A DNA stretch of 64,000 nt from Flavobacteriales bacterium (GTDB taxonomy: Bacteria > Bacteroidota > Bacteroidia > Flavobacteriales_F > PHOS-HE28): NCBI GenBank assembly GCA_016703005.1, contig JADJCX010000033.1, positions 164,430-228,429 of the forward strand. Direction: 5' to 3'. Under the pieces are notes generated by a model. The model made no database searches. It was not told where the DNA came from and saw only the letters and a list, made by a program, of their open reading frames with translations. A program made the translations under genes and the position numbers. This document shows positions 6,208 to 54,449 of this stretch, piece after piece (the first letter of the stretch is position 1; every line of letters begins with the position of its first letter).

Positions 6208-6731
6208 TTAGTGTTCAGCGACACGCTTCAAACCGGCCAGACCGTTCTCGAAATCCTTCCCGATCAGCTTGTCCATGTTCATGAACATGCCCATCACCTT
6301 GCCCATGAACATGTTCGGGCCGTCCATGGTCCAGCGCACGTTGGTGGCGCTGCCTTGCGGTGTGAAGTGGAAATGCGTGATGCACTGGTTCTTGAACGGC
6401 CGCACGAAACGCAGGTCGATCTTTACGCCATTGGTGTTGGCTTCCAGGATCTCCATCGTGCCTTCACCGGCCTTACCATTGCCGCTCCAACCGTATTTGG
6501 CGCCTACGCCTTGCGGTGCAGCCATGTATTCGCGTTTCATGTTCGGGTCCAGTTTCTCCCACGGGCTCCAGGGCATCCACTTGTGGAAGTCCGTGATGTG
6601 GGGAGAATGCTTTCCGGTGAAGCGTTGATCATTGTGCTGCGCTCGTAGTGAACGGAGTTCGGCTTCATGGAAGCCGCAATGAGAATGCCGACGATGAAGA
6701 CGGCGAGGCCGAGGAGGATGTATGTGAGCAT
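6208..6731 (-). CDS. Membrane-anchored SRPBCC family protein (polyketide cyclase/dehydrase-like), disrupted by a frameshift
   Basis: N-terminal piece (ORF 6537-6731: MLTYILLGLAVFIVGILIAASMKPNSVHYERSTMINASPESI) and C-terminal piece (ORF 6208-6795 frame: HITDFHKWMPWSPWEKLDP...GLAGLKRVAEH) are in different frames. The junction is at the G4 run at 6600-6603. Confidence 0.6.
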
Positions 6732-6746
6732 GGTGGTAGGTGTGGA

Positions 6747-7136: not shown

Positions 7137-7222
7137 TCGATAGGGTACAAGTGTGAGAGGTTGAAATGGAAAGAGGGTAAGAGGGTGAAAGGGTGCGAGG
7201 GAACTGGGGATGAATGGCTCTG

Positions 7223-8064: not shown

Positions 8065-8125
8065 GTTGTGATCAGGATCGGTGTCAGTGGGGGCTTTGGT
8101 CCCTCAGCTTCGCTTCCTTTGAAGC

Positions 8126-8764: not shown

Positions 8765-8765
8765 T

Positions 8766-9050: not shown

Positions 9051-9081
9051 TATCTGATCATCTCATTTTCCGATCCTCTGA

Positions 9082-9492: not shown

Positions 9493-9495
9493 CGT

Positions 9496-9960: not shown

Positions 9961-9963
9961 GGT

Positions 9964-10245
9964 CTACCGATGAAAGGTCAATGTGTTCAGTCCTTTTGCG
10001 CTGCGTGCTTCCATTAAGGCCAAGCCACCAACGAAGAGCACTTCCGCCAATAGATGCGCAACGCCCAGTGCGCTGAGTTCACTTGCTTTGTTGAAGAGCA
10101 AGCCAAGACAGAAGAGGGCATACAGCGCATTCGCGGTGATGAGCGTCCACACGGGATTGGGACGATAGGCTTTGAGCAGCGTGATCGTACCGGAGAATGC
10201 GCCGTAGCACATCCCGACGATGCCCAGCCGAGCGAACCACGCCAC
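9964..10245 (-). CDS. Small multi-TM membrane protein (possibly the 3' part of a frameshifted longer gene reaching 10355)
   Basis: 93-aa ORF with GTG start and hydrophobic helices. The overlapping ORF 10014-10355 in another frame has a TM-like N-terminus, suggesting one gene with an indel near 10250. Confidence 0.35.
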   Translation of the reverse strand: MAWFARLGIVGMCYGAFSGTITLLKAYRPNPVWTLITANALYALFCLGLLFNKASELSALGVAHLLAEVLFVGGLALMEARSAKGLNTLTFHR

Positions 10246-10351
10246 CGAAAGACCCGAAAGCGGCGACCATACCTCCCGACGAAGAACAGGACAAGTCCCG
10301 CCACGATACCTGCGATGGCGTCGGTACGGATGAGAGCAGGCAGCGACCAGG

Positions 10352-11107
10352 TCATGCGCGTTTTGCTTTGGTCTTTGTCCTGACAGCGGCTGCCGTGCGC
10401 TTCGTATCCCGCTTCTCCGCGCGCTTCGCGATCATCGGTCGGTTGATGTCGCTTAACACATCTTTTCCTACCCAGCGTTCGGTCTTGTCGGTGCTGGCGG
10501 CGAGGCGCTCAGCGACTTCCAGGGCGGCTTCGCGACAGACCACGCTTCGCGAACCCAAACTGCGCAAGGCCCAGCTCACGGCCTTCTTCACGAAGTTGCG
10601 CTCGTCGTTCGCGGCCTTCTCGCATAGGGGCAACAATTCGAGGTAGGGCTCATCGGGTCCTTTCTTGTCGTGCAAGGCGCAACCGGCCAACAACGCGAAC
10701 GCTGCCCGCTTTTCGAACTCCGGCTTACGCTTGGCCCACTGCTTCACCTTGCTGAACGCATGCGGGGTCTTGTCGAAGAGCAGGAAGCACGCCGTGTCGC
10801 AATCAGCCCAATTCTGGAAGTCAGCGCACCAGGCATCCATCATGGAGGGCGTCACCAGCCTGGGGTCAGCAAGGTGTGTGGCCAGCGCTTTGGCTTCATG
10901 CCAACCGGTGTCCCAGAGCAACAGCGCCAATTCGTGGTCCTTGCCGATGGTCTTGGCCAGCTTCTGCACGTCCGGCATCGAAGTACCGAATGCCTGATCC
11001 GTGTGGATCGCGAAGCGCGCTGACAATTGTTCACGGTAGCGCTTCGTGCCATGCGACTCCAACAACTTGAGTGCCGCCTTTACATCCGCTTCTCGCTTCC
11101 CGGCCAT
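10352..11107 (-). CDS. DNA alkylation repair enzyme (AlkD-like HEAT-repeat DNA glycosylase family)
   Basis: 251 aa. LKLLESHGTKRYREQLSARFAIHTDQAFGTSMPDVQKLAKTIGKDHELALLLWDTGWHEAKALATHLADP...DAWCADFQNWADCDTAC matches the PF08713 pattern. Lys-rich C-tail. Confidence 0.65.
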   Translation of the reverse strand: MAGKREADVKAALKLLESHGTKRYREQLSARFAIHTDQAFGTSMPDVQKLAKTIGKDHELALLLWDTGWHEAKALATHLADPRLVTPSMMDAWCADFQNWADCDTACFLLFDKTPHAFSKVKQWAKRKPEFEKRAAFALLAGCALHDKKGPDEPYLELLPLCEKAANDERNFVKKAVSWALRSLGSRSVVCREAALEVAERLAASTDKTERWVGKDVLSDINRPMIAKRAEKRDTKRTAAAVRTKTKAKRA

Positions 11108-11136
11108 TCGGTCATCTCATTGTCTGATCAACTGAT

Positions 11137-11604: not shown

Positions 11605-11641
11605 GTTGCTTGGGATTGTCGGGGCCGGGATCTTCCGGCCC

Positions 11642-12595: not shown

Positions 12596-12617
12596 GTCAG
12601 TGTAGTATCGGAGTGGA

Positions 12618-13034
12618 TCAGGCTTGAGCTTCCGTGTACGCTTTGAACCGGTCCAGGATCGCTTGCCAGCCGCCGCGTTGCATCTCCACAGGGTTCTCTG
12701 TCTCTGCATCAAAAGCTTCGGTCACCAGTGTACCTCCTTCCCTTTCGTTGAAATGGATTTCGCAGATGCGACCATCGGCCATGGTGTAGGCGATGCGCTT
12801 GTTCAGTTGAACATCGTCATACACTCCGGCGAAATCGAAGCTGAAGCTGCCATCGCGCGCGGCCATGGTGCTGCTGAATTTGCCGCCGGTGCGCAGGTCA
12901 TTGGTCGCCTTTGGGCAGTGCCAATCGTCGCTCGCCGCGTTCCATTGCGTGATGTGCGCAGGTTCTGTCCAGGTCCCCCAGACGTGGGCCACTGGTTTGT
13001 TCACGAGGGCGGAAACGGTGATGCGGGTACTCAT
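12618..13034 (-). CDS. SRPBCC family protein
   Basis: MSTRITVSALVNKPVAHVWGTWTEPAHITQWNAASDDWHCP...GTLVTEAFDAE. Confidence 0.7.
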   Translation of the reverse strand: MSTRITVSALVNKPVAHVWGTWTEPAHITQWNAASDDWHCPKATNDLRTGGKFSSTMAARDGSFSFDFAGVYDDVQLNKRIAYTMADGRICEIHFNEREGGTLVTEAFDAETENPVEMQRGGWQAILDRFKAYTEAQA

Positions 13035-13068
13035 GGTGTTGTGCGTTCGTAGTGTTGGTCTTGACTTG

Positions 13069-13462
13069 TCAATCCTCAAGGGCTTCGATGCCCTGTTCCT
13101 TCAAGCGTTGCAGGTTGTCCTTCATGGCTTGGAGTTGTTCCGGCGCGTGGCCTTTCCAATCCATCACTTCGCCGATCACGCGCAAGGCATCCTTCGTGCG
13201 GTACGATTTCGTTGGATTGCCCGGGAACTTCTTGTCCGTCAGATTAGGATCATCCTCATATGGCCCCGGGGCTTCCACGATGTAGATCCTTCCGCGTCCT
13301 TCACCGGCAGCGAGTTCAGCGCCCCAGGTAGCGGCATCCAGCGTGGCGGAGAAGTACATACTTCGCCTTGTTCCCTGGCCATAATTGGAATTGAACCGGG
13401 TTCGAGAGGTCGCCCTTCTTCAGATCGGCCTTGGTGCCGTGGTAGAACGTGGGTGATTCCAT
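13069..13462 (-). pseudogene. arr: Rifampin ADP-ribosyltransferase Arr, frameshifted
   Basis: C-terminal fragment (ORF 13069-13359) YFSATLDAATWGAELA...GRGRIYIVEAPGPYEDDPNLTDKKFPGNPTKSYRT...RVIGEV.DW.GH aligns with Arr-2/Arr-ms. N-terminus MESPTFYHGTKADLKKGDL (Arr FYHGTKA motif) is in another frame. The shift is at a C/G run near 13396-13400. Confidence 0.55.
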
Positions 13463-13474
13463 GTCGCATGCATT

Positions 13475-13975
13475 CATAGACCGGACGCGAGCAGTTCATC
13501 CAACTGATCAAGGCCCATGGTGAAGCCTTCCTTGAAGCCCATCGCCACGATCTGCTCCAGTTCTTCTGGTGAACCAAAGTGGAGGATGGCGCGCACCAAT
13601 GTGCGACCATCCGTTCTTGCTGAAGTGCGCTTCCCAACTCACCTTGGGCTTCGTGTCGTTCCCTACGCCGTGCTCATCGCAGAACGAATCGCTGCCCGAG
13701 AAGTGCGACTTCGGCCGGACGGTCTCGTAGTCGAAGAAGCACCAGTGCCGGTCGCCTTGCGGGCCTTGCATGTAGTAGAGCCAACGCCCACCTTCACGGA
13801 AGTCGAGTGCCTTGATCACGCACTCATAAGGCTTCGGAGCCCACCACTGGCAAAGGATGTCCGCATTGGTCCACGCGGCCCACACCGGATCCAGCGGGGC
13901 GTTGAAGGATCGCTCCACGGTGATCGACCGGGCGTCCTTTTGAACGATGAAGTTGAAGATCGCTGCTTTGCTCAT
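13475..13975 (-). CDS. SRPBCC domain protein (Aha1-like), C-terminus frameshifted
   Basis: ORF 13508-13975 gives ITVERSFNAPLDPVWAAWTNADILCQWWAP. The canonical C-terminus DGRTLVRAILHFGSPEELEQIVAMGFKEGFTMGLDQLDELLASGL is in another frame after EAHFS, with the shift near 13612-13622. Confidence 0.6.
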
Positions 13976-13987
13976 GGTTCAATGGGT

Positions 13988-14437
13988 TTATGGAGTGCTC
14001 AGGTAGTCGTCCAAGCGTGCGAGCGTTTGCTGGCCGCCTTCGATCGCGCCGATCTCTTTGACGGCGAAGTCCCGTGCTTCCTTGTTGGGGAAGAGGGTGC
14101 GAAGGGTCACGAGTGTTCCGCCTTCGGTTTCCTCGAAGGTGATGACGGCCTCGAATTGTTTGGGGTTCTGCCAGTCGCCGTGATCGTAGGCCAGACGGTC
14201 GATGGGGGACACCTCGGTATAGGTCACGAGATTCTCGAACACGCGGCCCTCTCCGGATGTCATCGTGAATTTCCATTGCCCACCGATGCGGACATCCATG
14301 GAAAGCGTCTTATTCGTAAAGCCGTTGGGCCCGAACCAATGATCCACATGCGCGGGATCCGTCCAAGCCTGCCACACGATCGATCGTGTGGCCTTAACGG
14401 TGCGGCTGATGATGATCTCGCGGTCACTCTTGTTCAT
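13988..14437 (-). CDS. SRPBCC domain protein (Aha1-like)
   Basis: MNKSDREIIISRTVKATRSIVWQAWTDPAHVDHWFGPNGFTN. ATGA overlap with the upstream arsR-family gene. Confidence 0.7.
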   Translation of the reverse strand: MNKSDREIIISRTVKATRSIVWQAWTDPAHVDHWFGPNGFTNKTLSMDVRIGGQWKFTMTSGEGRVFENLVTYTEVSPIDRLAYDHGDWQNPKQFEAVITFEETEGGTLVTLRTLFPNKEARDFAVKEIGAIEGGQQTLARLDDYLSTP

Positions 14438-14811
14438 GGCTTCTTCTTTTTGGCCTTCGCTGTCTTCGCGGAGGTGGCCTTGGCATCGGCCGACTTGGCT
14501 TGCAGTTCCATCAGGTAGGCATCGAGGCGATCGAAGCGCTCCTCCCACATCTGACGATACTGTTCGATCCAGGCGTCGGCTTCGCGCAGCGGTTCGGCCT
14601 TCATCTCGCAGGGGCGCCATTGGGCCTCGCGGCCGCGTGCGATGAGTTGTGCGCGTTCCAGCACCTTCAAGTGTTTGCTGATCGCCGGCAGGCTCATGCT
14701 GAACGGCGCTGCGATCTCGTTCACCGAGGCGGCACCCGTGCTCAAGCGCGCGAGAATGGCGCGTCTCGTAGGGTCGGCGAGGGCGGAGAAGGTGAGCGAG
14801 AGGCGGTCCAT
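14434..14811 (-). CDS. ArsR/SmtB family transcriptional regulator
   Basis: MDRLSLTFSALADPTRRAILARLSTGAASVNEIAAPFSMSLPAISKHLKVLERAQLI is the HTH of ArsR family. It is the first gene of the minus-strand array. Confidence 0.75.
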   Translation of the reverse strand: MDRLSLTFSALADPTRRAILARLSTGAASVNEIAAPFSMSLPAISKHLKVLERAQLIARGREAQWRPCEMKAEPLREADAWIEQYRQMWEERFDRLDAYLMELQAKSADAKATSAKTAKAKKKKP

Positions 14812-14831
14812 TGTTCCTTGAAGGGACAAAC

Positions 14832-14855
14832 GTATTAAACCAAATGGTTAAATAC
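14832..14855. promoter_or_regulatory. Putative ArsR operator (imperfect palindrome) overlapping the promoter of the ArsR-led operon
   Basis: gtattaaacc-aaa-tggttaaatac (11/12 inverted repeat) is ~20 bp upstream of the ArsR start. A Bacteroidota -7-like TAcgTTTG follows on the coding (minus) strand. Confidence 0.4.
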
Positions 14856-14934
14856 AAGAGGTCGCAGAAATTTTCATTCGGGATAGGGGTGATCAGCGGT
14901 CCATCTGTCTTAGGGACACACTTCAAAACCAACT

Positions 14935-15606
14935 ATGATGGATCTCCGTTTTCCCGCTGCTCTCATCGCAGCATCATTGCTTTCGCTCAATGGTCTCCAT
15001 GCTCAAGAGAAGGATGCTGAGCCCCGGACGCTATTCGGTTCAGAACATGAACGCAAGAATGGCGGTTGGGGCGGACCGTCCGTTGCACTTACCGAGATCA
15101 TGGGCACCGAAGCCTTGCTTGTGGGATTACATGCCGGCTGGCTCATCGATCATCGCTTCACACTCGGACTTGCTGGTTACGGACTTGTTACGGATGTCCC
15201 GAACAAGGCGTACGACGCGTACCTCTTGGATAGCGGTCGCCGACTGAACAAGGGCAGCCAATTCCGGATGGGCTATGGCGGTCTGCTCTTGGAGCCGATC
15301 ATCGCTTACCGGAGCCCGGTGCATGTGAGCCTGCCCATTATCATCGGGGCCGGGGGATGTGGCTACGAGACCTTCGGACCGCTGCCCGACGATTTCGACC
15401 CGGAGGAGTATGACTACCGCAATGATGGCCAGGCGTTCTTCGTGGTCGAGCCAGGTGTTGCACTCGAGTTCAACCTCGTACGAATGGTCCGGTTAGGCCT
15501 CGGCGCATCGTACCGGTACACGACCGACGTTGATCTGCCCGGCACGCCTGCGGATATCCTTCACGGGCTGAACACGGCGTTCACGATCAAGGTGGGGCGG
15601 TTCTGA
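14935..15606 (+). CDS. Secreted hypothetical protein (possible outer-membrane beta-barrel)
   Basis: 223 aa. Signal peptide MMDLRFPAALIAASLLSLNGLHAQ. Alternating hydrophobic/Gly-rich strands. C-terminal TAFTIKVGRF ends with aromatic F. Confidence 0.5.
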   Translation: MMDLRFPAALIAASLLSLNGLHAQEKDAEPRTLFGSEHERKNGGWGGPSVALTEIMGTEALLVGLHAGWLIDHRFTLGLAGYGLVTDVPNKAYDAYLLDSGRRLNKGSQFRMGYGGLLLEPIIAYRSPVHVSLPIIIGAGGCGYETFGPLPDDFDPEEYDYRNDGQAFFVVEPGVALEFNLVRMVRLGLGASYRYTTDVDLPGTPADILHGLNTAFTIKVGRF

Positions 15607-16800: not shown

Positions 16801-17331
16801 ATGCGCATTTCCGTTTTCTGTGGAGCAGGGCTGGGTAATTCACCGGCTATTCAAGAAGCAGCACGCGCGACGGGTCAGGCAATAGCCCAGCTTGGATGGG
16901 GCGTGGTTTACGGGGGCGGCCACGTGGGCCTCATGGGGTTGGTCGCGGATGCGGCTCTCGAAGCAGGAGGGAGGTGATCGGTGTGATCCTGGTTCATGGT
17001 CGAGAAGGAATTGGCGCATTCCCGGTTAACGCAATTGCTCGAGGTGGAGAGCATGCACCAACGGAAGATGCGGATGCACGAGCTGAGCGATGCCGTGATC
17101 GCGCTACCCGGGGGCTTCGGCACCCTGGATGAGCTTTTCGAACTGCTCACATGGCGGCAGATCGGTCTGCATAACAAGCCCATCGCCCTGCTCAATGTCG
17201 ATGGGTTCTTTGATCCGCTGATCGCACAAGCAGATCGTATGGACGCCTTGGGTTTCCTTCATGCCCAGCGGGGGCTTTTGATGTCTGAGCAGCACATCGG
17301 CCCATTGCTCGACCGCTTCGCTCGGTCGTAG
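16801..17331 (+). CDS. LOG family protein (TIGR00730 Rossmann-fold nucleotide hydrolase), locally disrupted
   Basis: [16 protein letters not shown]...[26 protein letters not shown] then two in-frame stops, then VEKELAHS...[57 protein letters not shown] 27-nt garbled segment at 16972-16998 is restored by three 1-nt homopolymer insertions. Confidence 0.6.
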
Positions 17332-18202: not shown

Positions 18203-18258
18203 GCCCAACCACCAAGTGGCGCCGCGATCGACGGCATGCATTGCTTTGCACGATGCAC

Positions 18259-19127
18259 CACGCTGGAACTTTCTTCTTGTTTTCCCTTGCGCTCGCGATC
18301 ACCCCTGTGAATGCGGGTCATGGAACACCATTCGATCTATCCCACCCAACACGTCGTTACCCCTTGCCCGCAGAGTTGCTGGAGATCTCCGGCATCACCG
18401 ATGTGGATGCGAACACCATCGCCTGCCTGCACGATGAAGCGGCCACGCTCTACTTCATCGATCTCATTTCAGGAAGCATTGTCGATCGGTTGACCTTCGG
18501 TGTTCCCGGCGACTATGAAGGCCTTACCCGCGTCGGCGAACTCTACTTCGCTTTACGAAGCGATGGATTGATCAATCGACTTCGGTTACGCGATGGCGCG
18601 ATCGAACTGTTGGATACGTTCCGCCTGGCGATACCGAACCAGAACATCGAAGGTCTCGGATACGATGAGGCCCTGGACCGGGTACTCGTTTCACCGAAGG
18701 ACTTTGCCAAGGGTGACAAAGCAACCCGGGATGAGCGTGTGATCCATGCTTTCGATCCGGTCACAGGGAAGATGGCGACTGAGCCCGCTCTGCGGTTCTC
18801 AGTATCAGGATCATCGCGCAAGCCCAAGCCATCGGTGTTAAGTTGCCCATGCGGAAAACGGACAATGGCCGTGAGTTGCCGGCGTTGAAATTGCGGCTCA
18901 GTTCCGTTGCCGTGGATCCTGAGACGGACCATTACTACTTGCTCTCGGCGGTAGATCATGTGTTGCTGGTGCTGGACCGCAATGCACGTCTGGTCTCGCT
19001 GCATCTGTTGGATCCGCTGGCATTCCCGAAACCGGAGGGCATCACTTTCCTGCCGGGCGGCGATATGCTGATCAGCAACGAGGGCAAGGGTGGTCAACCG
19101 GATCTGTTGCGCTTCAATGGCCAATGA
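18259..19127 (+). CDS. SdiA-regulated/YjiK-like beta-propeller protein, frameshifted
   Basis: ELLEISGITDVDANTIACLHDEAATLYFIDLISGSIVDRLTFGVPGDYEGLT in ORF 18055-18888. Continuation ...IAQAQAIGVKLPMRKTDNGRELPALKLRLSSVAVDPETDHYYLLSAVDHVLLVLDRNARL...ITFLPGGDMLISNEGKGG in ORF 18843-19127 in another frame. Shift near 18800-18815. Confidence 0.5.
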
Positions 19128-20169
19128 ACACCTTTCCGGTATGGAATTGAACACCATCGGCCTCCGCAAACCGATCTACCCGATCAATGATCGGTTGGCC
19201 GGCTACCTGAAGGCCATCGATCGTTCCGATAAGTTGCCTGTTGTGTACTCGGATCTGTTGCGCCATGAGGGGCTCTTGGCACAGAAGGATGCTCAAGGAC
19301 GAGAGACGCTCTGGACAACGGTTCTGCTGAGACCTGCGGAGATGGACGACCTCCATCAGCGGTTGGTGCAACTCTACCAGATGCTTGTGGCCGATGGCCG
19401 GCATGTGGACCACCTGCGCGTGGCAAGCATCGATTTCTGCGCATACGGCAACAGCCAGCCTTTCCGTATTAAGATCCTCAACCAGATCAACGACAACCAC
19501 GATTACTACTATATCAAAAAGGCCGACGCCAGCCGCGTGTACGGACTTGAGCTGGAGCACCTTCTCAGCCCGAACCGCATCAACTATGCGGTGGATGGCA
19601 GCACACTGGTGGAAGAACACATCATCGGTGTACCCGGGGATGACTTCATCAAAGACCCCTTCCACTATGGAGGCAACATCAACGCGGTGCGCCTGAGCAA
19701 GGAGTTCGTCAAGTTCAACGAGCGCTGTTTCGCTCGGCTGCTGGGGGACATGCGCGCCTACAACTTCGTGGTGGACGTGATCCAGGACTTCGACAAGGTG
19801 CAGTACCGCTTGCGGAGCATCGATTTCGACCAGCAGTGCTACGAAGGACGGCACCGCATCTACCTGCCCCAGTTCTACAAGGAGAACCTGCCCTACGTAC
19901 AATTCGCCCAAGAGCATATCGGCAGCGAGAGCACTGAACAGTACGGCATTGAGGAACGCGCACTGTTGCGCAAGCGTTACCGCTTGTCGCAGGCCCAGCT
20001 CGAAGAATTGTTCAATGTGATGCACACCGATACCATCAGTACGCCCGAACATGTGGGCATGCTCGCGCAAGAGCTCAGCCAACTGCATGGCGATGCGCGC
20101 ATGGCCATGTGCGACAATATGGGAGCGATCTTGGAATTGCACCTGAAGCTGCGGTTGGGGTTGGAGTGA
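19090..20169 (+). CDS. Conserved hypothetical protein (function unknown)
   Basis: 359-aa ORF with no recognisable motif. Start ambiguous (19090/19117/19138). Confidence 0.45.
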   Translation: MVNRICCASMANEHLSGMELNTIGLRKPIYPINDRLAGYLKAIDRSDKLPVVYSDLLRHEGLLAQKDAQGRETLWTTVLLRPAEMDDLHQRLVQLYQMLVADGRHVDHLRVASIDFCAYGNSQPFRIKILNQINDNHDYYYIKKADASRVYGLELEHLLSPNRINYAVDGSTLVEEHIIGVPGDDFIKDPFHYGGNINAVRLSKEFVKFNERCFARLLGDMRAYNFVVDVIQDFDKVQYRLRSIDFDQQCYEGRHRIYLPQFYKENLPYVQFAQEHIGSESTEQYGIEERALLRKRYRLSQAQLEELFNVMHTDTISTPEHVGMLAQELSQLHGDARMAMCDNMGAILELHLKLRLGLE

Positions 20170-42970: not shown

Positions 42971-44665
<1,695 letters not shown>

Positions 44666-45711: not shown

Positions 45712-45860
45712 GGTCCCGTGTGTTGTGGGGATGATCACGATCACTTGTGGCTCTGTGCTTCCAACACGCTGCGCAACTGCTGCATCAGCGCGGTGTTCGC
45801 GTCCAGTTGCGCGCGGATGGCGTTGAGGGCCTCGTCCTTTGCCGCGTTCCCCGCGCGCAA

Positions 45861-46655
45861 TCATACGATCTCGGCCTGTTGCGCCCCGATCATCGCGTTC
45901 AGCTCCTTCACCGCATTCACGAGCATGTAGGTCATGGCGCTGTTGTCCACTTCCAGGTATTCCGTGCCATCGATCACCAGTGTGTCGATCATGTAAGGTG
46001 CCACCTCGCGGAGTTGTTGCGCGATCACGCCCACGTACTCAATGGTCGTATCGGTCTTGGCCAGGCTGTTGTACCGGAAGTGCACGGGCTCAATGGCCAG
46101 TACGGCGCCCAGGCCATCGCCGTACGGCCGCACATCGCGCTTCAAGCGTTGATCGGAGAACACGGCCCATGAGCCGCCGCCGGTCTTGTTCGCCGAGCCG
46201 TTCACGCTAAGCAGGGCCGTGGGCCCCAGGGTACCGATGCCCACGTTGCCGCTGGCCGTTAGGGTCATCACAGATAAGGTGTTGGTGATGAAGGTCAGGT
46301 CATGCGCGCTCCTCGTACCGAACCATGCTGAAGCATTGCCAGGGAAATAGGAACCCAAGATGATATTGCCATCCGTATGGCTAAATCCACCGCCGACGCC
46401 TGGTGTACGTACAGTGAGTTTATCGGTGGATGTTGTTGTGCCGATCCCCACGTTGCCGTTGGTCAACAAGGTGATCTGGGGGCTGCTATTGTTGGTGAAG
46501 AAGCTCAGGCTGTGGTTGCTCTTCGTGCCCAACCATCCTCCACTGGTGCTCCCCCACATAGGACCCCACGGTGATCGTACCATCGGTATGGGTGAACCCG
46601 AAGTTGCTGGTGGCCGTTCGCACGGTGAGCTTATCGGTGGGTGCGTTCGTACCAA
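45861..46655 (-). CDS. C-terminal fragment of the giant protein with tail-fibre intramolecular-chaperone (peptidase S74-like) domain
   Basis: GGSWAVFSDQRLKRDVRPYGDGLGAVLAIEPVHFRYN...EYVGVIAQQLREVAPYMI resembles the auto-cleaving C-terminal chaperone of phage tail fibres/endosialidases. Confidence 0.55.
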   Translation of the reverse strand: MVRTHPPISSPCERPPATSGSPIPMVRSPWGPMWGSTSGGWLGTKSNHSLSFFTNNSSPQITLLTNGNVGIGTTTSTDKLTVRTPGVGGGFSHTDGNIILGSYFPGNASAWFGTRSAHDLTFITNTLSVMTLTASGNVGIGTLGPTALLSVNGSANKTGGGSWAVFSDQRLKRDVRPYGDGLGAVLAIEPVHFRYNSLAKTDTTIEYVGVIAQQLREVAPYMIDTLVIDGTEYLEVDNSAMTYMLVNAVKELNAMIGAQQAEIV

Positions 46656-48054
46656 TACCCACGTTGCCTTCGACGATCGCTCCGTTCGTGGGTGCGGCTG
46701 TTGTACCGGAGAAGTTGGCGCCTACGGCCATGCCGCCTTCCACATCCAATTTGCTGGCAGGCGTGGTGGTGCCGATGCCCACGTTCGTTCCATCGTCGGT
46801 CATCACGCCATCGGTGAGTGTGGTGCCGTTCCACTTGGGCACCTGGTTCGTTGTGGCGCTGCTCACCTGCGGGTCCGTTTCAGCCGCCACGTTCTGCCAA
46901 GTGGCCGCACCGTTCGCATCCGAAGTGAGTACGCGGCCAGCGGCTTGTGTGCCATCGGCGATGCGCACGTTGCCCGCTACATGCAACTTGGCTGCGGGCG
47001 CGGTGGTGCCGATGCCGACGTTGCCTTCGATGATGGCTCCGTTCGCCGGTGCGGCTGTTGTACCGGAGTAGGTGGCGCCTACGGCCATGCCTCCTTCCAC
47101 ATCCAATTTGCTGGCGGGCGTGGTGGTGCCGATGCCCACGTTGCCCGTCGCATCTTCCACCATGGCGGCATCACCGAGAATGGTTCCCGTATTGCCGAAT
47201 TTGGCCAGGTGGTTCAAGGTGCCGTTGGCGTTCACCGCCGGGCCTACGGCACCTTGTGGGCCGACGGGGCCTTGCGGACCAACGGCCTTGCCGGCATTGA
47301 TCACGCTGGCATCGCTCAGCGTTACGTAGAGCGAATCGTTGGTGATCGCTGCGGTCGTTACCGATACCCCTTGCGGGCCGGTGGGGCCCGTGGATCCCGT
47401 GGGACCTTGCACACCCGTTGGGCCTTGGTCGCCTACCTCGCCAGCGATGCTCGCCGCCCATGAGCTGTATGTGCCGGAACCCATGGTCCTGTCCACCAGC
47501 ACCGTGATGTTAGCCACTCCGCCGCTGGTGATGTTCCCTTCCATCCATAGAGCCGTAGTGGGGTAAACGCTGATGCGTACACGGGAACCTATGTTATAGG
47601 CGGTGTTCCGGTCCAACGCGAACGACTTTGAACCGGTGCCGATGGTCTGCGAGGTGAAGGAAAAGGCGTAGTAGCCAGGACCCGATGCTCCAGTTGCTCC
47701 ATTGGACCCGTTCATACCGGTTATGGCGATGGTCCATGGGCTATACGTACCTGAGCCGAGCGCTCCTTGTAGCGATACTGACATGGATGTCCCGCTGGGG
47801 GTGTATGCAGTGACAGTACCGAACATGTAGTGTGTCGTGGGGTTGCCGGTCCTGCTGATCCTTACGTTATCGCCCACTTGATAAGCCAGGCCCGTTTGCG
47901 TGGCGAACGTGATAGTGCCACTTGGGGCAATGGTCATTGCCGTTGTGGACGTTGCGTAGTACCCCGGCCCAGTGGCTCCTTGCGGTCCTGTTGCTCCTGT
48001 TGCACCCGTTGCTCCTGTTGCGCCTACCGCTCCTTGCGGCCCTGTAGCGCCCAC
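46486..48054 (-). CDS. Central/C-proximal fragment of the giant protein (collagen-like Gly-X-Y tracts and beta-helix repeats)
   Basis: GATGATGATGATGPQGATGP, GPTGVQGPTGSTGPTGPQG, GPQGPVGPQGAVGP. GNVGIGTTTPASKLDVEGGMAVGA appears twice. Confidence 0.6.
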   Translation of the reverse strand: MGATGPQGAVGATGATGATGATGPQGATGPGYYATSTTAMTIAPSGTITFATQTGLAYQVGDNVRISRTGNPTTHYMFGTVTAYTPSGTSMSVSLQGALGSGTYSPWTIAITGMNGSNGATGASGPGYYAFSFTSQTIGTGSKSFALDRNTAYNIGSRVRISVYPTTALWMEGNITSGGVANITVLVDRTMGSGTYSSWAASIAGEVGDQGPTGVQGPTGSTGPTGPQGVSVTTAAITNDSLYVTLSDASVINAGKAVGPQGPVGPQGAVGPAVNANGTLNHLAKFGNTGTILGDAAMVEDATGNVGIGTTTPASKLDVEGGMAVGATYSGTTAAPANGAIIEGNVGIGTTAPAAKLHVAGNVRIADGTQAAGRVLTSDANGAATWQNVAAETDPQVSSATTNQVPKWNGTTLTDGVMTDDGTNVGIGTTTPASKLDVEGGMAVGANFSGTTAAPTNGAIVEGNVGIGTNAPTDKLTVRTATSNFGFTHTDGTITVGSYVGEHQWRMVGHEEQPQPELLHQQ

Positions 48055-49942
48055 CGGCCCTTGCGGCCCCGTGGCACCAGTAGCTCCTTGCGCACCAACA
48101 GCACCCGCGAGCGGCTGCGAGGTGATACCACCGTCACCGGATCCATCGTGATCATGTTCGGGCAGAAGAGCTTATACACTTGCATGGTGTAGCCGGACTG
48201 GTTCACCACGTAGGCGTAGTTGTCAGCCACGGTCACGGCAAATGATCCTGTACCGGTGGCGATGGTTGCACTGAGACTGGGTGCGGCCGGGTTGCTGATG
48301 TTCCACGCTGTCAGGGTGTTGTTGGCGTTCACCACAAAAGCGTAATTGCTCGCTATGGTCATCGCAAAAGCACCACTACCTAGGCGATGTTGGCAATGAG
48401 GCTGGGCGCAGCCGGGTTCACGTTGAACACCAACATGTTACCAGCCGTATTCGCCAGGCATAGGTGCCCGATACGGCGACGGTATAGGCGCTGGAGACCG
48501 TTGAGATAAGTGGCGCTGAGGCTGGGTGCTGCCGGGTTGCTGACGTTGAACACCATCATGTTGGTGCTGTTGAAGTGTACCACATAAACATAGTTGCCCC
48601 CTGCGGCCACGTCCCGGGGTGGGTACCGGTGGCTATGGTGCTGCTATGAGGCTGGGCGTTACCGGGTTGCTGATATCGAAAACCATGAGGTTGTTACTCG
48701 CGGAGTTCACCAAGTACATGTAGTTGCCCATCACGGCCGCGGAACGAGGGCTCGTACCGGTTGCGACGGTGGCAACCAGGCTGGGTGCAGCCGGGTTGCT
48801 GATGTTGAACACCGACATATTGCTACTTCCGAAGTTCAACACATAAGCGTAATTGCCCGCCACGGTCAAAGCACGCGGACTGGTTCCGGTGGCGATGGTG
48901 GCGCTGAGGCTGGGCGCGGCCGGGTTGCTGATGTTGAACACCATCATGTTGTTGCTGAAGGCGTTCACCACGTAAGCGTAGCTACCGGCCACGGCCCACG
49001 TCAGTGGGGTCTGGAGTCGATACCGGTGGTGATGGTGGCCGTGGTGCTCAAGCAGGCGAGGTTACCTCCTGGCACGTTCCCGCTCCCGAAAATGCTCTCC
49101 GCGCTCAGGTTCTGCCAGCTGGCATTTCCGTTGGCATCGCTGGTGAGGATGTTGCCGCCCTGTGACCGTCGGCCAGTAGTGTTGTGCCAGCCATGCAACT
49201 TGGCCGCTGGGGTGGTGGGTGCCAATGCCACATTGGCTTCGATGGCTCCACTCGCCGGTGCGGCTGTTTGTGCCGGAGTAGGTGGCGCCGCCGCCCTCCT
49301 TCCACATCAATCTGCTGGCGGGCGTGGTGGTGCCGATCCCCACGTTGCCACCGTTCGTGTTTGCGATGTGTTCGCCGTAGTTGACCCATGGTGCGGTCTG
49401 CGAGGTGATCGTACCTGTACTCGCATCCATGGTGATCATGTTCGGGCAGTAGAGATCATACACCGTCATGTTGTTGCTGTTGATGTTCACCACGTAGGCG
49501 GTGCCGCCCTCCACCGCTACGAATTGCGGGCCGGTGCCGGTGGCGATGGTGGCCCTGAGGGTGGGTGCTTCCGGGTTGCTGATGTCGAACAGCAACATGT
49601 TGTTGCTGGTGCCATAAGCGTGGTTTCCTGCCCGGCCACGGATTCGGAGCCTGTCAGCCGCGATCGTGGCCACCAGGGCCGGAGCGGACGGAGTGCTGAT
49701 GTCGAACACATGCAAGTTGTGGGACCCGGAACTCACCACGTAGGCGTGGCTGCCAGCAATGGCCACGGATTGGGGTGTGGGTCCCGTAACGACGATGGCG
49801 ATCAATGTGGGCGCGGCCGGGTTGCTGATGTTGAACACCTGCATCGTGTTGCTGCCCCGGTTCACGGCGTAGAGGTAACTACCAGCCACCTGGAGCGAGG
49901 TCGGTTCTGGCCCGGTATAGGTGGTGGAGACCAGGCTGGGCG

Positions 49943-51088
49943 CTAAAGGGGCAATGATGTCGTACGTGAGGATGCGCTCCGGCGAGTTGTGAGCGACACG
50001 TACAGGAAGTTCCCGGATATGGCCACCGACCGAGGGTACAACCCTATGTTAACGCTGCCTTCAAGTACCGGCGCCGATGGAACGCTGATATCATAGATGC
50101 GCATCGAACTGCCGCCGGATGTGATGACGTAGGCGTAGCCACCGCCGATGGCCATGGAGATCGGCAGCATGTCGATGCCGCTTACGGTGCTTGCAAGAAC
50201 AGGTGCAGCCGGCGTGCTGATATTGAACACGTTCATGGATCCGTCATCCTGGTTCAGGACATAGGCATGATCTCCGTTGATCGTCACGAAACGGGGTTTC
50301 AACCCTGTTCCTATAGCGGCCGTTTGACTCGCACAGCCTAAGGTGCCCCCCGGCACGTTCCCGCTGCCGAAAACGCTCTCCGCGCTCAGGTTCTGCCAAC
50401 TCGCGTTGCCGTTCGCATCGCTGGTGAGCACCTTGGCTGCGCCTTGTGAGCCGTCCTGGTATTTGATGCCGCCCACCACATGCAATGTGGTGTCCGGCGC
50501 GCTGGTGCCGATGCCCACGCGCCTGCCATTGTTGTGCAGGGTATCGCCGCTCAACACCCAACCGGGCGTACCGGCCAGGCTGGAGAGGTCCACGCCGTTG
50601 CCGCCGGTGATGTAGAGCGTGTCGTTGCTCAGCGTGAGCGTTTGCGGTACGCTGGTGGTATTGCTATCGCTGGTGAGGGCGTGCATGGCGAAGGGCACTG
50701 CCTTGAAGGGCCCGCCGCTGAGGAAGGTGTAGTTGGTGCCGCCGGTCACATCCACCGCCACGCTGTAGGTGATGGGTTGTCCGCTGGCCCACTGCACATC
50801 AGCGAACGTGGGAATGGCCGAGCCGCCCACCGGCGTGCCCTGCCCGATGGTGAGGGCGATGAGCCCGTAGGCGTCGGTGCTGGCGCCGTGCGTCTCCACG
50901 TAGGTGTCCGAGGGGCCCACCTGAATGGTCACTTGCACGCCCACGGGCTGGCTGGGCACGGGGTCGCCAACGTTGTCGCGTACCACGGCCTGGTAGCTGA
51001 AGCCACTGAAGTTCTGCGCGATGCCTTGCACCCCGATGAGGAGGGTGAAGGCGAGCAGCAACGAACGGAACGAATGCGTAGAGAGCAT
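49943..51088 (-). CDS. N-terminal fragment of the giant protein (signal peptide, beta-helix, first LVIVD-like repeats)
   Basis: MLSTHSFRSLLLAFTLLIGVQGIAQ. VLTSDANGNASWQNLSAESVFGSGNVPGG. YAYVLNQDDGSMNVFNISTPAAPVL and YAYVITSGGSSMRIYDISVPSAPVL are LVIVD-like. Confidence 0.6.
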   Translation of the reverse strand: MLSTHSFRSLLLAFTLLIGVQGIAQNFSGFSYQAVVRDNVGDPVPSQPVGVQVTIQVGPSDTYVETHGASTDAYGLIALTIGQGTPVGGSAIPTFADVQWASGQPITYSVAVDVTGGTNYTFLSGGPFKAVPFAMHALTSDSNTTSVPQTLTLSNDTLYITGGNGVDLSSLAGTPGWVLSGDTLHNNGRRVGIGTSAPDTTLHVVGGIKYQDGSQGAAKVLTSDANGNASWQNLSAESVFGSGNVPGGTLGCASQTAAIGTGLKPRFVTINGDHAYVLNQDDGSMNVFNISTPAAPVLASTVSGIDMLPISMAIGGGYAYVITSGGSSMRIYDISVPSAPVLEGSVNIGLYPRSVAISGNFLYVSLTTRRSASSRTTSLPL

Positions 51089-51231: not shown

Positions 51232-54200
51232 ATGCGCCGGTCATCGCCATTCACACACGCCAGAGCTGCCGTGCATTGCATGGCCGGTCTTCTCCTTGCA
51301 GGCGCATGGCTGTGCACAGGCACGGCCTACGCCCAGTTGGACACCGTGGATGTCCAACTCGACGCCATCACCGTGGAGGACGGCCTGCCCATGGGCTATG
51401 TGCTGGCCATGGCGCAGGACAGCACGGGCTACCTCTGGCTAGGCACCAACGATGGCCTCGCGCGATACGATGGATACGACTTCACCGTGTTCCGCCAAGA
51501 TGCGCAGGACAGCAGCAGCATCGGCGCGAACCGCATCAGCAGTTTGCTGGTGGATCGTGAAGGCTACCTGTGGGTGGGCTTTGCGCCTTTCGGTCTGGAC
51601 CGCTACGATCCACGTACAGGGCGCTTCGCGCATGTGCGGGTGGATGGCTTGGGTGCTGATGTGCGATCTACCCTGCTGGCGGATCTCTGCCTTGATGCAC
51701 GAGGGCGGGTATGGATGACCGCTACGATACCGAACGACGTCGTGGCCTACGTCGTGGATCCTGCATTACCAGGCCCACTGGTTGTGATGGAGCCGCGCGA
51801 ACTGCGTCCGCCCATCGCACCGTTGCGGAATGCTTTCGCCTTCATCGGTCCCGGCGGCGATCCGTGGTTCACCAGCCCGGATACCATTCGCTGCGCACAC
51901 TATGGAAGCGACGGCTCTGTTCAACTGACCGATCGGGCGCACAGCATCCCTTGGTGGATGGACGATGGCATCCGGCAGTCACCGATCCTGATGACCGACC
52001 CTGTGAGCAGCACCATGCTGGTGACCGAGCCTGGTTACCTCACCCGCATGAACGCTGGCAAGGCAGCTCCCTTGGATACGATCCACCTGCCTTTGGCCGA
52101 TCACAGGAAATGCAAGGTGCTTGACTCCCACGGTCGGCTTTGGGCGGACCGTTACGAGGAACTCGATTCGCGGGTGGACGTGGTGTCTGGCAGAACGGAG
52201 GTCGTGAAGACCTTCGTCGAGGGCGCCGCCGGTGGGCGCTCGCCGATCAATGGGTTGACCCCGATCTTGGAGGACCGGGCCGGTAACATCTGGCATCAAT
52301 CAGGCGGCTACGGCCTGTTCTGGTCGAACACGCGCAACGAACGTTTCAAGCGGGTGGGTGCTGGAGATCTGATCGGCCTCAATGCGGGTAATGTGGACGG
52401 GACCGTGCTGATCAGCAACGTCGGTAGGGGACCGGTCGCGCGGTACCTGATCTCCAAGGAGGTCTGGAAAGGCCATCCCCAGCGTATCCCCGCATCGCGA
52501 CTACTTGATGTTCGGTGCCGTGGACGATCAAGGCAGGTTGTGGGCGGCCGAAGTGGTTCCGGGCTCACGCGCTATCCGGGTCGTGCTCTTCGAGAACGAT
52601 CGCCGCATCGATGTCCCGTCCCTCGCGAACGATCGCAGCCGTGCGATCCTGCCGGGTAGGAACAACACGCTATGGGTGGTCTCTTGCGATACGGTCGATG
52701 TCTTGACAAGCCTGGTGCATGTTGATGCTCGCACGGGTGACATCATTCGCCGCTACACGCCACCCCCGGTTTTCGGTTCTGGTGCCAACGAGCAGATCAA
52801 ATCGATCACTCACCATCCCGATGGCACCATCTGGATGGGTACGGAACGCGGCCTGCACCACTTGGACCCCAAGACGGGTGTTTGGAAGGTCTACCGGCAT
52901 GATGAACGCGATCCGCATTCGCTGCCGAGCGACCTGGTCCTCACCACCTGCCTGGACCCGGCCGATCCGGAGCACGTGCTCTGGGTGGGCACGAACGGCG
53001 GTGGCCTCGCGCGCTTCGACCTGCGCACACGAAAATTCAAGCGATACACAACCAAGGACGGCTTGCCGAACAATGTGATCTACGGCATCCTGAGCGATGC
53101 GCGCAAGAACCTGTGGATCGGCACCAACCAGGGCTTATGCCAATTCGATCCGCATTCGGGTGCGATGACGACGTACACCACGGAGGACGGCTTACCCAGC
53201 AACGAATTCAACACCTACAGCTACGCGAAGGCCGATAACGGCGAACTCTGGTTCGAGGGCATGGGCGGTGCCTTCCACTTCAACCCCGAGGACTTCTACG
53301 AGACGATCCCCGCGTCGCCTACGGTGATCACCAGCCTGAAGCTCGTGGGCAAGGCTGTGACAGTGGCCGGTCTCGGCAACGCCACCGGTGAAGGCTACGA
53401 ACTCCCTGCGCCCATCGAGTACGTGCGCAGCATCACCCTGCCGTACAGCGAGCGCATGATCACCTTCTCCTTCGCGTGCATGGACCACACCGCACCGCTG
53501 AAGAACACGTTCCGCTACAGGCTCGAGAACTTCAGCAAGGACTGGGTGGAAGTGGGCACCGTGCACGAGGCCACCTTCACCAACCTCGATCCCGGCACCT
53601 ACACCTTCCGCGTGCAAGGGCGCAACAGCGCGGGCGTTTTGGATGAACGCGGCGCGGCGATGCAACTCATCATCACGCCGCCGTGGTGGGGCACCTGGTG
53701 GTTCAGGATCATTGCGGCGCTATCCATAACAGCCGGAGTGGTCGCCTTCTACCGCTACCGCCTGGCGCAAGCGGTGAAAGTGGTGCGCGTGCGAGCGCAT
53801 CGCGCGCGACCTTCACGATGAGATCGGTTCCACCTTGAGCAGTGTGCAGTTGTACAGTGCCGTGGCCGAGAGCAAGACCAAAGGCACCCAACCCGAAACG
53901 CACGAACTGTTGGGCCGGATCACCGAAGGCACCACCTCTGTGCTGGAGGCCATGAACGATATCGTGTGGGCCGTGAACGCCGAGAACGATGACCTGGCCC
54001 ATGTGGTGCAACGCATGAACAGCTATGCCGAGCGCATGGCGGACGCGCGTGATTGTGCGCTCCGTTTCGAGGTGCAGGAGGGCATCGCCTCACAGCCCCT
54101 GGGCATGACACAGCGCAAGAACCTCTACCTCATCTTCAAGGAGGCGCTCAACAATGCGATGAAGTATTCGGCGTGCAAGAACCTGCTCATCGAACTGCGC

Positions 54201-54449
54201 AAAGAAGGTTCCGGCCACCTCTTGCGGGTCCGGGACGATGGCATCGGATTCGAGGTGGATGCGCAACGGCCGGATAACCTCGGTGGCAACGGACTTGGCA
54301 ACATGCGTCGCCGCGCCGACGAGATGGGCGGCACCTTGCACGTGCGTTCGGCCCCGGGGCAAGGCACCACCGTGGAACTGCGCTTCTCCGCCGTGCCGGG
54401 CGAAATATCAGTGGATCATATGAGCAGCCCCGTCGATACGCCCCGGTAA
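51232..54449 (+). CDS. Hybrid sensor histidine kinase of the two-component-regulator-propeller/Y_Y_Y family, split by two frameshifts
   Basis: Reg_prop repeats (GYLWLGTNDGLARYDGYDF, GTIWMGTERGLHHLDP, LWVGTNGGGLARFD, LWIGTNQGLCQFDP). Y_Y_Y (GTYTFRVQGRNSAG). TM. H-box RIARDLHDEIGSTLSSV. HATPase_c (GNGLGNMRRRADEMGGTL). Frame changes near 52470-52505 and 53780-53800. Confidence 0.6.

Follow-up and report, generated by a model that had tools for sequence, protein, structure and literature searches.

Introduction

Pseudogene-rich reductive genomes are represented by Mycobacterium leprae and by the recently host-restricted Shigella and Sodalis. Simple-repeat, phase-variable contingency loci of Neisseria, Haemophilus and Campylobacter have tracts of 7 or more bases. 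The stretch of DNA analysed here, 64,000 nucleotides in length and referred to hereafter as the window, resembles each of these in part. As in reductive genomes, about 14% of its genes are interrupted by frameshifts, mostly in accessory functions. Unlike those genomes, however, the window has a normal coding density, truncated gene remnants or large deletions were not seen in it, it holds one stop as against about 30 indels, and its lesions, with one exception, are unshared by conspecifics and occur in non-coding DNA as well. As in contingency loci, the frame changes fall in mononucleotide or dinucleotide repeats, but here the tracts are 2-5 bases long, there are multiple shifts per gene and none is conserved in relatives.

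A further likeness is to the errors of Nanopore R9-era and hybrid-polished MAGs, which are deletion-biased indels of 1-2 nt that fragment gene calls (PMC9262707, PMC8012365). Such errors persist where short-read polishing had no effect, and MAGs of one species break at different positions. In assemblies from R9-era Nanopore data, the recognised form of residual error is the homopolymer indel, with gene calls fragmented as a result (PMC9262707). The window differs from isolated long-homopolymer miscounts in that its runs are often of 2-4 bases, and the lesions are clustered and sometimes accompanied by an adjacent substitution. From the comparisons reported below we conclude that almost all of the frameshifts are very probably consensus errors of a long-read metagenome assembly and not mutations of the organism.

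Source of the window and comparison set

The window is part of, or identical with, a contig of an NCBI MAG with IPG74 locus tags. Two of its proteins (19141-20169 and 49946-51088) are 100% identical to the NCBI proteins IPG74_16470 and IPG74_16625, respectively, both of which sit on one contig (510,943 nt) in a Flavobacteriales MAG. The conspecific DNA, about 98% identical at the nucleotide level, comprised 17 short-read contigs, one clean contig of 540 kb (loci L133 and L148 in the comparisons) and two sister MAGs (accessions JADJJQ and JADKDH). The prefixes of the sister accessions match records named like 'Aved_18-Q3-R54-62_MAXAC.228 tig...'. This naming style and the Canu 'tig' labels fit an activated-sludge MAG pipeline in which Nanopore reads passed through Canu 1.8, Racon and Medaka (two rounds) and then through a single Racon round with Illumina reads, run with --include-unpolished (PMC8012365, citing BioProject PRJNA629478). 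From these accession and name patterns, the IPG74 MAG is probably of the same Nanopore/Canu series. Frame breaks were called by frameshift-aware alignment to intact orthologues and by nucleotide alignment to the conspecific assemblies.

Interrupted genes and other lesions

A preliminary description of the window had counted at least ten frameshifted genes. The excess over chance is clear, and alignments to orthologues and conspecifics revealed a frame break at or near each site that it listed, but the number of frame-disrupted genes is nine. Lesions at 20335, at the 19794/19797 pair and at the intergenic positions 20175 and 39266 were found beyond that list. The affected features are as follows.

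6211..6746, minus strand, SRPBCC/Polyketide_cyc2 gene with an N-terminal membrane helix (the membrane-anchored SRPBCC); one base lost from a C run at 6600-6605 (plus-strand G4)
9964..10355, minus strand, small membrane protein gene; private loss of 1 nt at about 10280, where L133 has GACCGA and the window GACGA
13072..13477, minus strand, arr (rifampin ADP-ribosyltransferase); four lesions in 51 nt
13483..13978, minus strand, AHSA1/SRPBCC gene (the second SRPBCC); extra G at 13615, with the last 40-50 codons out of frame
16801..17331, plus strand, predicted LOG-family gene; three bases lost within 23 nt, from translation in three frames, orthologue protein and DNA
18250..19127, plus strand, YjiK/SdiA-regulated-like gene (start approximate); one base lost at 18807 (CGGGGATC to CAGGATC)
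19794..19797, plus strand, -1/+1 pair in an otherwise intact 342/350-aa gene; GATCAAG to GACAAGG, three short-read contigs differing from the window
20175, no strand, loss of 1 nt from an intergenic C run (CCCC to CCC); extra C in three short-read contigs and L133
20238..20822, plus strand, 194-aa gene with the signal-peptide-like start MRRLTAFGMIIG; one base lost at 20335 (GG to G)
39266, no strand, intergenic 1-nt loss private to the window (GAGGGATC to GAGGATC); extra G in three short-read contigs and both sister MAGs
45744..51088, minus strand, giant secreted protein with LVIVD repeats and a C-terminal Peptidase_S74; at least ten frame switches
51280..54449, plus strand, hybrid sensor histidine kinase (Reg_prop, Y_Y_Y, HisKA_3, HATPase_c); three frames, with Pfam matches on three pieces

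In eight gene families the window was essentially the sole frame-split member, with possible two-frame matches in L018 (SRPBCC) and L065 (kinase). In the control families the window was intact in all eight, except for a second, paralogous SRPBCC match in C7.

Three other approaches were set aside. An ab initio codon-usage Viterbi parser with a frameshift state gave 11 shifts in the window against about 3.4 per 64 kb in controls; because shifts arise in the controls, mostly at overlapping gene junctions, the parser was not used as evidence of an excess. Pairs of frame-switching HSPs from all-against-all tblastn were confounded by junction-spanning stop-to-stop ORFs and by antisense ORFs, and were replaced by family-by-family checks. 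Apparent shifts at about 8078, 14459/14812/14931, 11151/11176, 9494/9576 and 12567 were rejected as lying upstream of real starts or in antisense or intergenic translation.

In the membrane-anchored SRPBCC gene, the base suspected to be missing from the G4 run at 6600-6603 is indeed absent. Orthologues L019 and L017 align in two frames, an intact 174-aa protein (P0143) that is 98% identical bridges the junction at PESILPHITDF, and the C-terminal piece matches positions 20-142 of 142 in PF10604; conspecific evidence at 6602 is at the protein level only. The membrane gene near 10250 had been listed as a possible case, and the deletion at about 10280 confirms a frame break in it. Its N-terminus is in a different frame from the remainder, the deletion is absent from L132 and L134, and the gene is an intact 130-aa ORF in L132, L133 and L134.

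A break in arr had been placed at 13396-13400. One lies there (13398, CCCGGG to CCGGG), but it is one of four events rather than a single site, the others being a 2-nt loss at 13356 (ACAC to AC), C4 to C3 at 13373 and, at 13406, loss of the T of GATC with a substitution. The reading frame along the gene runs in the order 1, 0, 2, 1, 2. All four lesions are private to the window, and L133 carries arr as an intact 137-aa ORF with PF12120; the pieces in the window match positions 1-34 and 32-99 of the 99 in this profile, which is covered over its full length. The break described at 13612-13622 in the second SRPBCC gene is the extra G at 13615, which switches the frame relative to about ten orthologues. 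This base is absent from L132 and L134. Since it is common to the window and the clean conspecific contig L133, the frameshift is probably a genuine allele.

Relative to the conspecific loci L129 and L133, the LOG gene reads GGG for GGGG at 16969 and CCTGG for CCCCGGG at 16988-16991, and the shifted stretch holds two stop codons. That three bases are missing was seen correctly in the preliminary description, but their identity (a, c and t) was not: the losses are G and 'CG', with one substitution in addition, and the segment restored there as ...KVIGVIPGSLVEKE is in truth EAGGEVIGVIPGFMVEKE. The gene is an intact 177-aa ORF in L129, L132, L133 and L134. Its C-terminal piece matches positions 24-114 of 131 in PF03641 (E = 1e-31), its N-terminal piece matches PF18306, and the PGGxGTxxE motif of the LOG family was found in the translation. 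As far as identity is concerned, the gene is thus predicted to be of the LOG family (cytokinin riboside 5'-monophosphate phosphoribohydrolase, or 'lysine decarboxylase-like').

The interruption of the YjiK-like gene, expected at 18800-18815, was placed at 18807, where L001 aligns in two frames and three short-read contigs and L133 have an extra G; the gene is an intact 291-aa ORF in conspecifics. At 19794-19797 the window has a lysine in place of the glutamine found in nearly all of the listed relatives with enough mismatches shown. The loss at 20335 was called from orthologues L013 and L001 and from the conspecifics. In the same 194-aa gene, a run of seven A at 20286, where the short-read contigs have A6, restores the frame upstream; this A6/A7 tract is the sole longer run and lies 5' of the probable start codon.

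Threading against intact 1682-aa orthologues (L049, L051 and L052) put the switches in the giant gene mostly at 48100-50000 and also at 46554. At least six sites had been claimed, and at least ten were found, an approximate count that comes from tiled local alignments and manual three-frame threading, with the interior covered by orthologues and not by conspecific DNA alignment. Global alignment to a 1682-aa orthologue was unreliable, as repeat number and domain order differ. The gene is a single ORF of 1285 aa in the clean conspecific L148, and in the sister MAGs it is broken at other positions. A private in-frame TGA at 45861-45863, which is GGA in both sister MAGs, may be an error or may be real; apart from it, no in-frame stop was seen in the true coding parts of the alignments.

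The kinase has gained a G at 52458 and lost 2 nt at 53791, within GCGCGTGCGCG; L135, L146 and L148 carry the intact sequence, with ORFs of 1072 and 1056 aa. Of the two sites described for this gene, that at 53780-53800 holds the 2-nt loss, but the other, at 52470-52505, begins 12 nt beyond the actual lesion. Orthologues alone narrow the first shift to 52447-52507, and the conspecifics place it at 52458.

Lesions compared with conspecific DNA

At every covered lesion except 13615 the conspecific DNA has the intact sequence, and none of the short-read contigs carries any lesion of the window. Three short-read contigs and L133 agree with one another and differ from the window at 16969, 16988-91, 18807, 19794/97, 20175 and 20335. 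Of these, only L133 extends over 10280 and the four arr sites; at 52458 and 53791 cover was provided by L135, L146 and L148.

Compared with L133 over about 21 kb, the window has 28 indel events, sister MAG1 has 71, sister MAG2 has 14 and each short-read contig has 1. Substitution divergence in the same comparison is about 1-2% and alike across assemblies (all at 98-99% identity), and at this equal divergence the window has about five times as many indels per substitution as the short-read contigs. A four-way alignment of clean regions contained six gaps private to the window, all six of them deletions. As a control, short-read contigs were compared in pairs. Their indels are confined to hypervariable stretches, which correspond to intergenic gaps in the window at about 39.2, 40.0, 40.7-41.1 and 60.1 kb, and no gene holds one.

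The sister MAGs are broken elsewhere. Sister MAG1 splits a DNA-alkylation-repair gene and a T9SS protease, both of which are intact in the window. Sister MAG2 splits a GyrI-like gene, cuts the giant gene at other points and has an ABC-F gene without a gene call; the window has the GyrI-like and ABC-F genes intact. In the kinase neither sister MAG has a break.

One sister MAG and one short-read contig have their CitMHS gene split at an identical position. Because this split is common to two assemblies, real frame-breaking variants circulate in the population.

Character of the lesions

Most lesions remove 1 nt from a run of 2-5 bases or 2 nt from a dinucleotide repeat (G4 to G3, C4 to C3, C3 to C2, GG to G, ACAC to AC and contraction of a GC repeat). 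They are biased towards deletion, the insertions being two (52458 and 13615). Tight clusters are formed in LOG (3 nt in 23 nt), in arr (four events in 51 nt) and in the giant gene (at least ten in about 2 kb). The distribution is patchy, with no ORF disrupted at 20.4-45.7 kb or at 54.5-64 kb, regions that include uvrB and transketolase subunits, and it is blind to coding, as lesions occur at intergenic 20175 and 39266 and, in compensated form, as a pair within a gene that is intact. Once repaired, the genes are 70-98% identical to intact relatives from end to end.

Origin of the lesions

The preliminary description had weighed homopolymer-type indel errors of long reads against gene decay. Errors are favoured by the intact conspecific DNA, by the indel load, by the breaks at other places in the sister MAGs and by the probable source in a Nanopore/Canu series with a lone short-read Racon round; the comparison with relatives that it had proposed yielded intact single-frame versions in the closest orthologues and conspecifics examined. 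Nanopore base-calling and consensus would drop, and sometimes add, bases in short homopolymers and dinucleotide repeats, and adjacent runs would be garbled too, as where CCCCGGG was apparently read as CCTGG. A lone round of short-read polishing would leave some stretches unrepaired; candidate causes are dense error clusters that block short-read alignment, repeats or paralogues, strain mixtures and low local coverage. With polishing failing in some stretches, patchy indels of 1-2 nt would remain, and gene callers would then cut the genes into pieces.

Genuine pseudogenes offer another, though improbable, account, in which the strain loses accessory genes (a defence or xenobiotic island, the giant surface protein and the sensor kinase) by real slippage while selection keeps the housekeeping genes. 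All of the broken genes are accessory, 25 kb of housekeeping genes have no ORF disruption, and selection against real mutations would yield the same patchiness. Gene loss would also agree with the presence of the 13615 insertion in an independent and otherwise clean assembly, with the private nonsense codon at 45861 and with the CitMHS break in a sister MAG and a short-read contig. However, the covered lesions other than 13615 are private to one assembly, so inheritance is not seen for them, and multi-hit clusters imply old pseudogenes, yet the remainder of each gene is without decay. Under uniform scatter the clustering in LOG and in arr has a probability of about 0.007 each by a hand estimate. 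Indels in non-coding DNA and the compensated pair in an intact gene also argue against gene loss, as do the roughly fivefold indel/substitution ratio relative to short-read contigs and the like damage to other genes, including the conserved ABC-F gene, in sister MAGs of the same pipeline.

The lesions might also be real and private to the strain, the product of localised indel mutagenesis at short runs beside GATC, for example by aberrant nicking or repair, in an accessory part of the genome; we hold this to be quite unlikely. GATC enrichment near lesions gave P = 0.11-0.17 in a window-based permutation, and CCWGG and TCGA gave nominal P = 0.01-0.05 among ten motifs without correction. When GATC sites destroyed by the lesions are counted, six of ten clusters are associated with the motif, in a post hoc count. 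A link of the lesions to GATC or methylation motifs is a lead only. If mutagenesis of this kind were true, the window would show a Flavobacteriales strain from wastewater during an unusual burst of gene inactivation.

Mixed strain reads could have dropped bases at variable positions, giving the consensus of a population (a chimeric bin). There are at least four conspecific haplotypes about 2% apart, the lesion-rich parts are the most strain-variable (the match at 13.9-15 kb; the centre of the giant gene, with no match of at least 93% in the sister MAGs), and a deletion adjoins a substitution at 16988, 18807 and 13406. But 16969, 20175 and 20335 are flanked by many bases identical in all other haplotypes, and a chimeric consensus is in any case a variant of the consensus-error explanation, in which an error-prone consensus step is still needed. 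We consider it very unlikely as the cause.

Functional recoding, by programmed ribosomal frameshifting or phase-variable contingency loci, is hardly credible: several lesions do lie in short homopolymers and giant surface proteins may be phase-variable in some bacteria, but the runs of 2-5 bases are far below known contingency tracts, 3-10 shifts in succession over tens of bases, with stops between them, would be required in several genes, and the closest orthologues and conspecifics examined read through the sites in a single frame (distant two-frame matches being L018 and L065), so that there is no conserved shift site and recoding appears effectively refuted.

Implications

Annotations from this contig need frame repair before use; naive gene calling would list arr, LOG, the kinase and the giant adhesin-like protein as absent or truncated. 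Pieces of the broken genes have already been deposited as separate 'hypothetical proteins', for example the 381-aa IPG74_16625, and genes that look intact may hold false residues, an example being the lysine at 19794-19797 that is private to the window. In this MAG series, bias is to be expected in pseudogene counts, in pangenome presence/absence and in resistance-gene surveys. Short conspecific contigs from public metagenomes suffice to separate such errors from real decay without the reads. Since nearly all of the breaks are absent from other assemblies, the finding is a warning about data quality and not about biology: in the organism itself LOG, arr, the YjiK-like gene, the kinase, the giant-protein gene and others are most likely intact.

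Broken reading frames in the window

The preliminary description, made by a first model from the sequence alone, reported at least ten frameshifted genes and proposed homopolymer indel errors as the cause. Alignment with orthologues and conspecific sequences confirmed the excess of frameshifts, although the affected genes number nine and carry more lesions than had been listed. The principal genes concerned are:

6211-6746 (-), SRPBCC gene
13072-13477 (-), arr
13483-13978 (-), SRPBCC gene
16801-17331 (+), LOG gene
18250-19127 (+), YjiK-like gene
45744-51088 (-), giant gene with LVIVD repeats and Peptidase_S74
51280-54449 (+), hybrid sensor histidine kinase gene

Every stop-to-stop ORF in the relatives obtained was translated and aligned to the window by tblastn, and frame breaks were then placed with a custom protein-to-DNA aligner that permits frameshifts. 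In this orthologue comparison, which had been suggested as a check, single proteins of relatives cross the frame breaks of the window: one orthologous protein is spread over two or three frames near 6602, in arr, at 13615 and in LOG, and further multi-frame matches lie at 18807, at 20335, all along the giant gene and at two places in the kinase gene. Pfam matches of the separate gene pieces run on from one another. The arr pieces match profile positions 1-34 and 32-99 of 99, the LOG pieces match PF18306 and then PF03641, and the kinase pieces match Reg_prop, then Reg_prop/Y_Y_Y, then HATPase_c.

Family by family, the window was essentially the sole frame-split member in 8 of 8 broken-gene families; two-frame matches also came from relatives L018 and L065. 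It was unsplit in 8 of 8 control families, bar a second, paralogous SRPBCC match in family C7. The window gene at 19.1-20.2 kb is intact; its orthologue in L012, a long-read soil MAG (contig_39721), is split at about 14451-14624, and this split in a control family indicates that similar residual errors occur in other long-read MAG sets too. In the relative L002, at 66-950 (-), an SRPBCC gene and arr share one unbroken 295-codon reading frame, possibly a gene fusion or merely an absent stop codon.

Comparison with conspecific assemblies

The adjoining intact gene, used as the query of a homology search, hit a protein of 99% identity. From this and other identical proteins we obtained 17 short-read contigs (MEGAHIT, SPAdes, JGI and Logan assemblies), two sister MAGs and a clean 540-kb contig of GCA_963851765.1 (L133/L148), each with about 98% nucleotide identity to the window. 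Over 21 kb relative to L133, the window had 28 indel events, sister MAG1 71 and sister MAG2 14, and three short-read contigs had 1 each, the identical A6/A7 run. With conspecific assemblies intact at every lesion that their DNA covers except 13615, and 28 indels in the window versus 1 in each short-read contig, the attribution to homopolymer-type long-read errors is supported.

Events private to the window were exactly the frame breaks plus those at 10280, 20175 and 19794/19797. The first of these bears out a membrane gene at 10250 that had been listed as a possible case. At 20175 an intergenic C4 run is C3. The -1/+1 pair at 19794/19797 changes GATCAAG to GACAAGG within an otherwise intact gene and yields lysine; among the listed relatives with enough mismatches shown, almost all carry glutamine there. 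In the clean contig arr (137 aa), LOG (177 aa), the YjiK-like gene (291 aa) and the kinase gene (1056 aa) are intact ORFs, and the giant gene is one 1285-aa ORF. Both kinase lesions, 52458 (+G) and 53791 (-2, in GCGCGTGCGCG), are contradicted by three other assemblies with intact ORFs of 1056-1072 aa. Evidence at 6602 is purely protein-level: an intact 174-aa JGI metagenome protein, 98% identical, crosses the junction.

Many indels separate the short-read contigs from one another, all confined to a handful of stretches whose counterparts in the window are intergenic gaps (39.2 kb, near 40.0 kb, 40.7-41.1 kb and 60.1 kb); no indel within any gene was found in their pairwise comparison, which indicates that in-gene, frame-shifting indels are specific to the long-read MAGs. 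At 40007-40031 (intergenic) the copy number of a 7-nt tandem repeat, CTCACGA, differs among short-read conspecific contigs.

Character and distribution of the lesions

Three-frame translation places the middle of LOG, EVIGVI, in a different frame from the flanking frame-0 peptide. Orthologue DNA reads GGN GGG GAG GTG ATC GGT GTG ATC CCN GGN TTC ATG. The patch is GGAGGGGAGGTGATCGGTGTGATCCCCGGGTTCATG in L133 and in L129, a conspecific short-read contig, and GGAGGGAGGTGATCGGTGTGATCCTGGTTCATG in the window, a loss of 3 bases in 23 nt (one G from a G4 run, plus CCCCGGG to CCTGG); the repaired peptide is EAGGEVIGVIPGFMVEKE. The earlier restoration by three single-base additions was right that three bases are missing, but by the DNA of L129 and L133 the proposed bases and two residues were wrong.

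A typical lesion is the loss of one base from a run of 2-5, or of one AC or GC repeat unit, with an adjacent substitution at 16988, 18807 and 13406; two lesions (52458 and 13615) are insertions. Exactly such residual errors, with an effect on gene calls, are found in R9-era Nanopore assemblies (PMC9262707). The lesions are strongly clustered: four events fall within 51 nt of arr, and at least 10 frame switches of the giant gene lie within 48.1-50.0 kb. Under uniform scatter within each gene, the clustering in LOG and arr has P of about 0.007 each (hand estimate). Their patchy spread along the window fits the error reading less well: about 12 lesions lie in 6.6-20.4 kb and at least 14 in 45.7-53.8 kb; no ORF-disrupting lesion was found in 20.4-45.7 kb or 54.5-64 kb. 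If about 30 events were spread uniformly over 64 kb, a lesion-free 19 kb would have P of about 1e-4, by hand estimate.

The window has a G+C content of about 59% and Bacteroidota-typical genes (T9SS-tailed secreted proteins, UvrB, a split transketolase, an ABC-F protein and an XerD-like recombinase). In a scan of GTDB species representatives, the GH18 gene adjoining LOG matched Flavobacteriales MAGs only (top amino-acid identity 81%). The region at about 6200-15000 is a dense island of small stress/xenobiotic-type genes: at least six AHSA1/SRPBCC paralogues, an ArsR-type regulator, arr, a DNA-alkylation-repair protein, a GyrI-like protein, a DUF1801 fusion and a glyoxalase/bleomycin-resistance-like protein.

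At NCBI, IPG74_16470 is 100% identical to the 342-aa protein at 19141-20169, and IPG74_16625 to the 381-aa N-terminal piece of the giant gene; both entries come from one 510,943-nt contig of a record named 'MAG: Flavobacteriales bacterium'. The sister MAGs are JADJJQ01 and JADKDH01, prefixes also found on records named like 'Aved_18-Q3-R54-62_MAXAC.228 tig01608606'; this naming and the Canu 'tig' contigs agree with Singleton et al. 2021 (PMC8012365), and we infer that the IPG74 MAG is itself a product of that project. Its pipeline used Nanopore reads, Canu 1.8, Racon and two Medaka rounds, and ended with a single Illumina Racon round with --include-unpolished (PMC8012365).

Taken as a whole, the lesions very probably are long-read consensus indels that were left uncorrected when the MAG was hybrid-polished. 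We think that their patchiness most likely stems from local failure of the sole short-read polishing round, for which paralogous SRPBCC genes, LVIVD repeats, strain-variable segments and error clusters unalignable for short reads are candidate causes. Sister MAG1, too, has dense indels in its counterpart of 9-13 kb, at other positions. GATC is about 2.3-fold over-represented in the window (546 sites versus about 234 expected from base composition by our own estimate) and in a post hoc count coincides, in the reference sequence, with lesions at 13406, 16988, 18807, 19794, 20335 and 39266. The association was not significant in a window-based permutation test (P = 0.11-0.17); as a lead only, GATC could be a modified-base context for Nanopore miscalls.

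Gene decay as a rival explanation, and probable real variants

Genes hit several times over would have to be old pseudogenes, but the broken genes are conserved end to end outside the patches, with no stop codons seen in their true coding parts. The sibling MAGs, moreover, are broken in other places. In sister MAG1 the DNA-alkylation-repair gene and a T9SS protease are split and arr has no gene call; in sister MAG2 the GyrI-like gene is truncated, the conserved ABC-F gene has no call and the giant gene is in pieces of 558, 142, 288, 456 and 45 aa. The kinase and LOG genes are unbroken in both. Non-overlapping damage among same-pipeline sibling assemblies is what platform error predicts and is hard to reconcile with lineage decay. 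Genuine pseudogenisation is unlikely, despite one break that the window has in common with the independent clean contig: the +G at 13615, in gene 13483-13978 (-) (about 4489 in L133), lies on a shared haplotype and is absent from L132 and L134 of the sister MAGs. It probably is a genuine allele, in which one SRPBCC paralogue has a truncated C-terminus. A strain-mixture consensus artefact as a separate cause is highly improbable, and recoding or phase variation even more so.

A private G to T at 45861-45863 gives an in-frame TGA (GGA in both sister MAGs) with 39 codons left to the conserved end of the giant protein. It may be genuine or a substitution error. The middle of this gene, with the LVIVD repeats (46251-50352), had no match of at least 93% in the sister MAGs, and gene length is about 1780 codons in the window, 1285 in L148 and 1682 in remoter relatives; the explanation is a hypervariable surface protein or else a repeat that was misassembled. 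In the ABC-F gene at 42971-44665, both sister MAGs agree against the window at four paired +1/-1 differences, each within 3-6 nt, at 43153-43895; the window ORF stays intact, and the error may lie on either side. A CitMHS/TrkA_C transporter, an intact 585-aa ORF in the window (56390-58147), is split after 101 aa in both L147 12435-14192 (a sister MAG) and L152 3289-4788 (a short-read contig), which points to a genuine frame-breaking variant in circulation within this population.

Broken fragments of the giant gene have been deposited as separate 'hypothetical proteins', IPG74_16625 (381 aa) and IPO17_14375 (558 aa), and assembly errors have thus already spread into protein databases. The frameshifts are of little biological interest, and the finding is useful as a warning for annotation.
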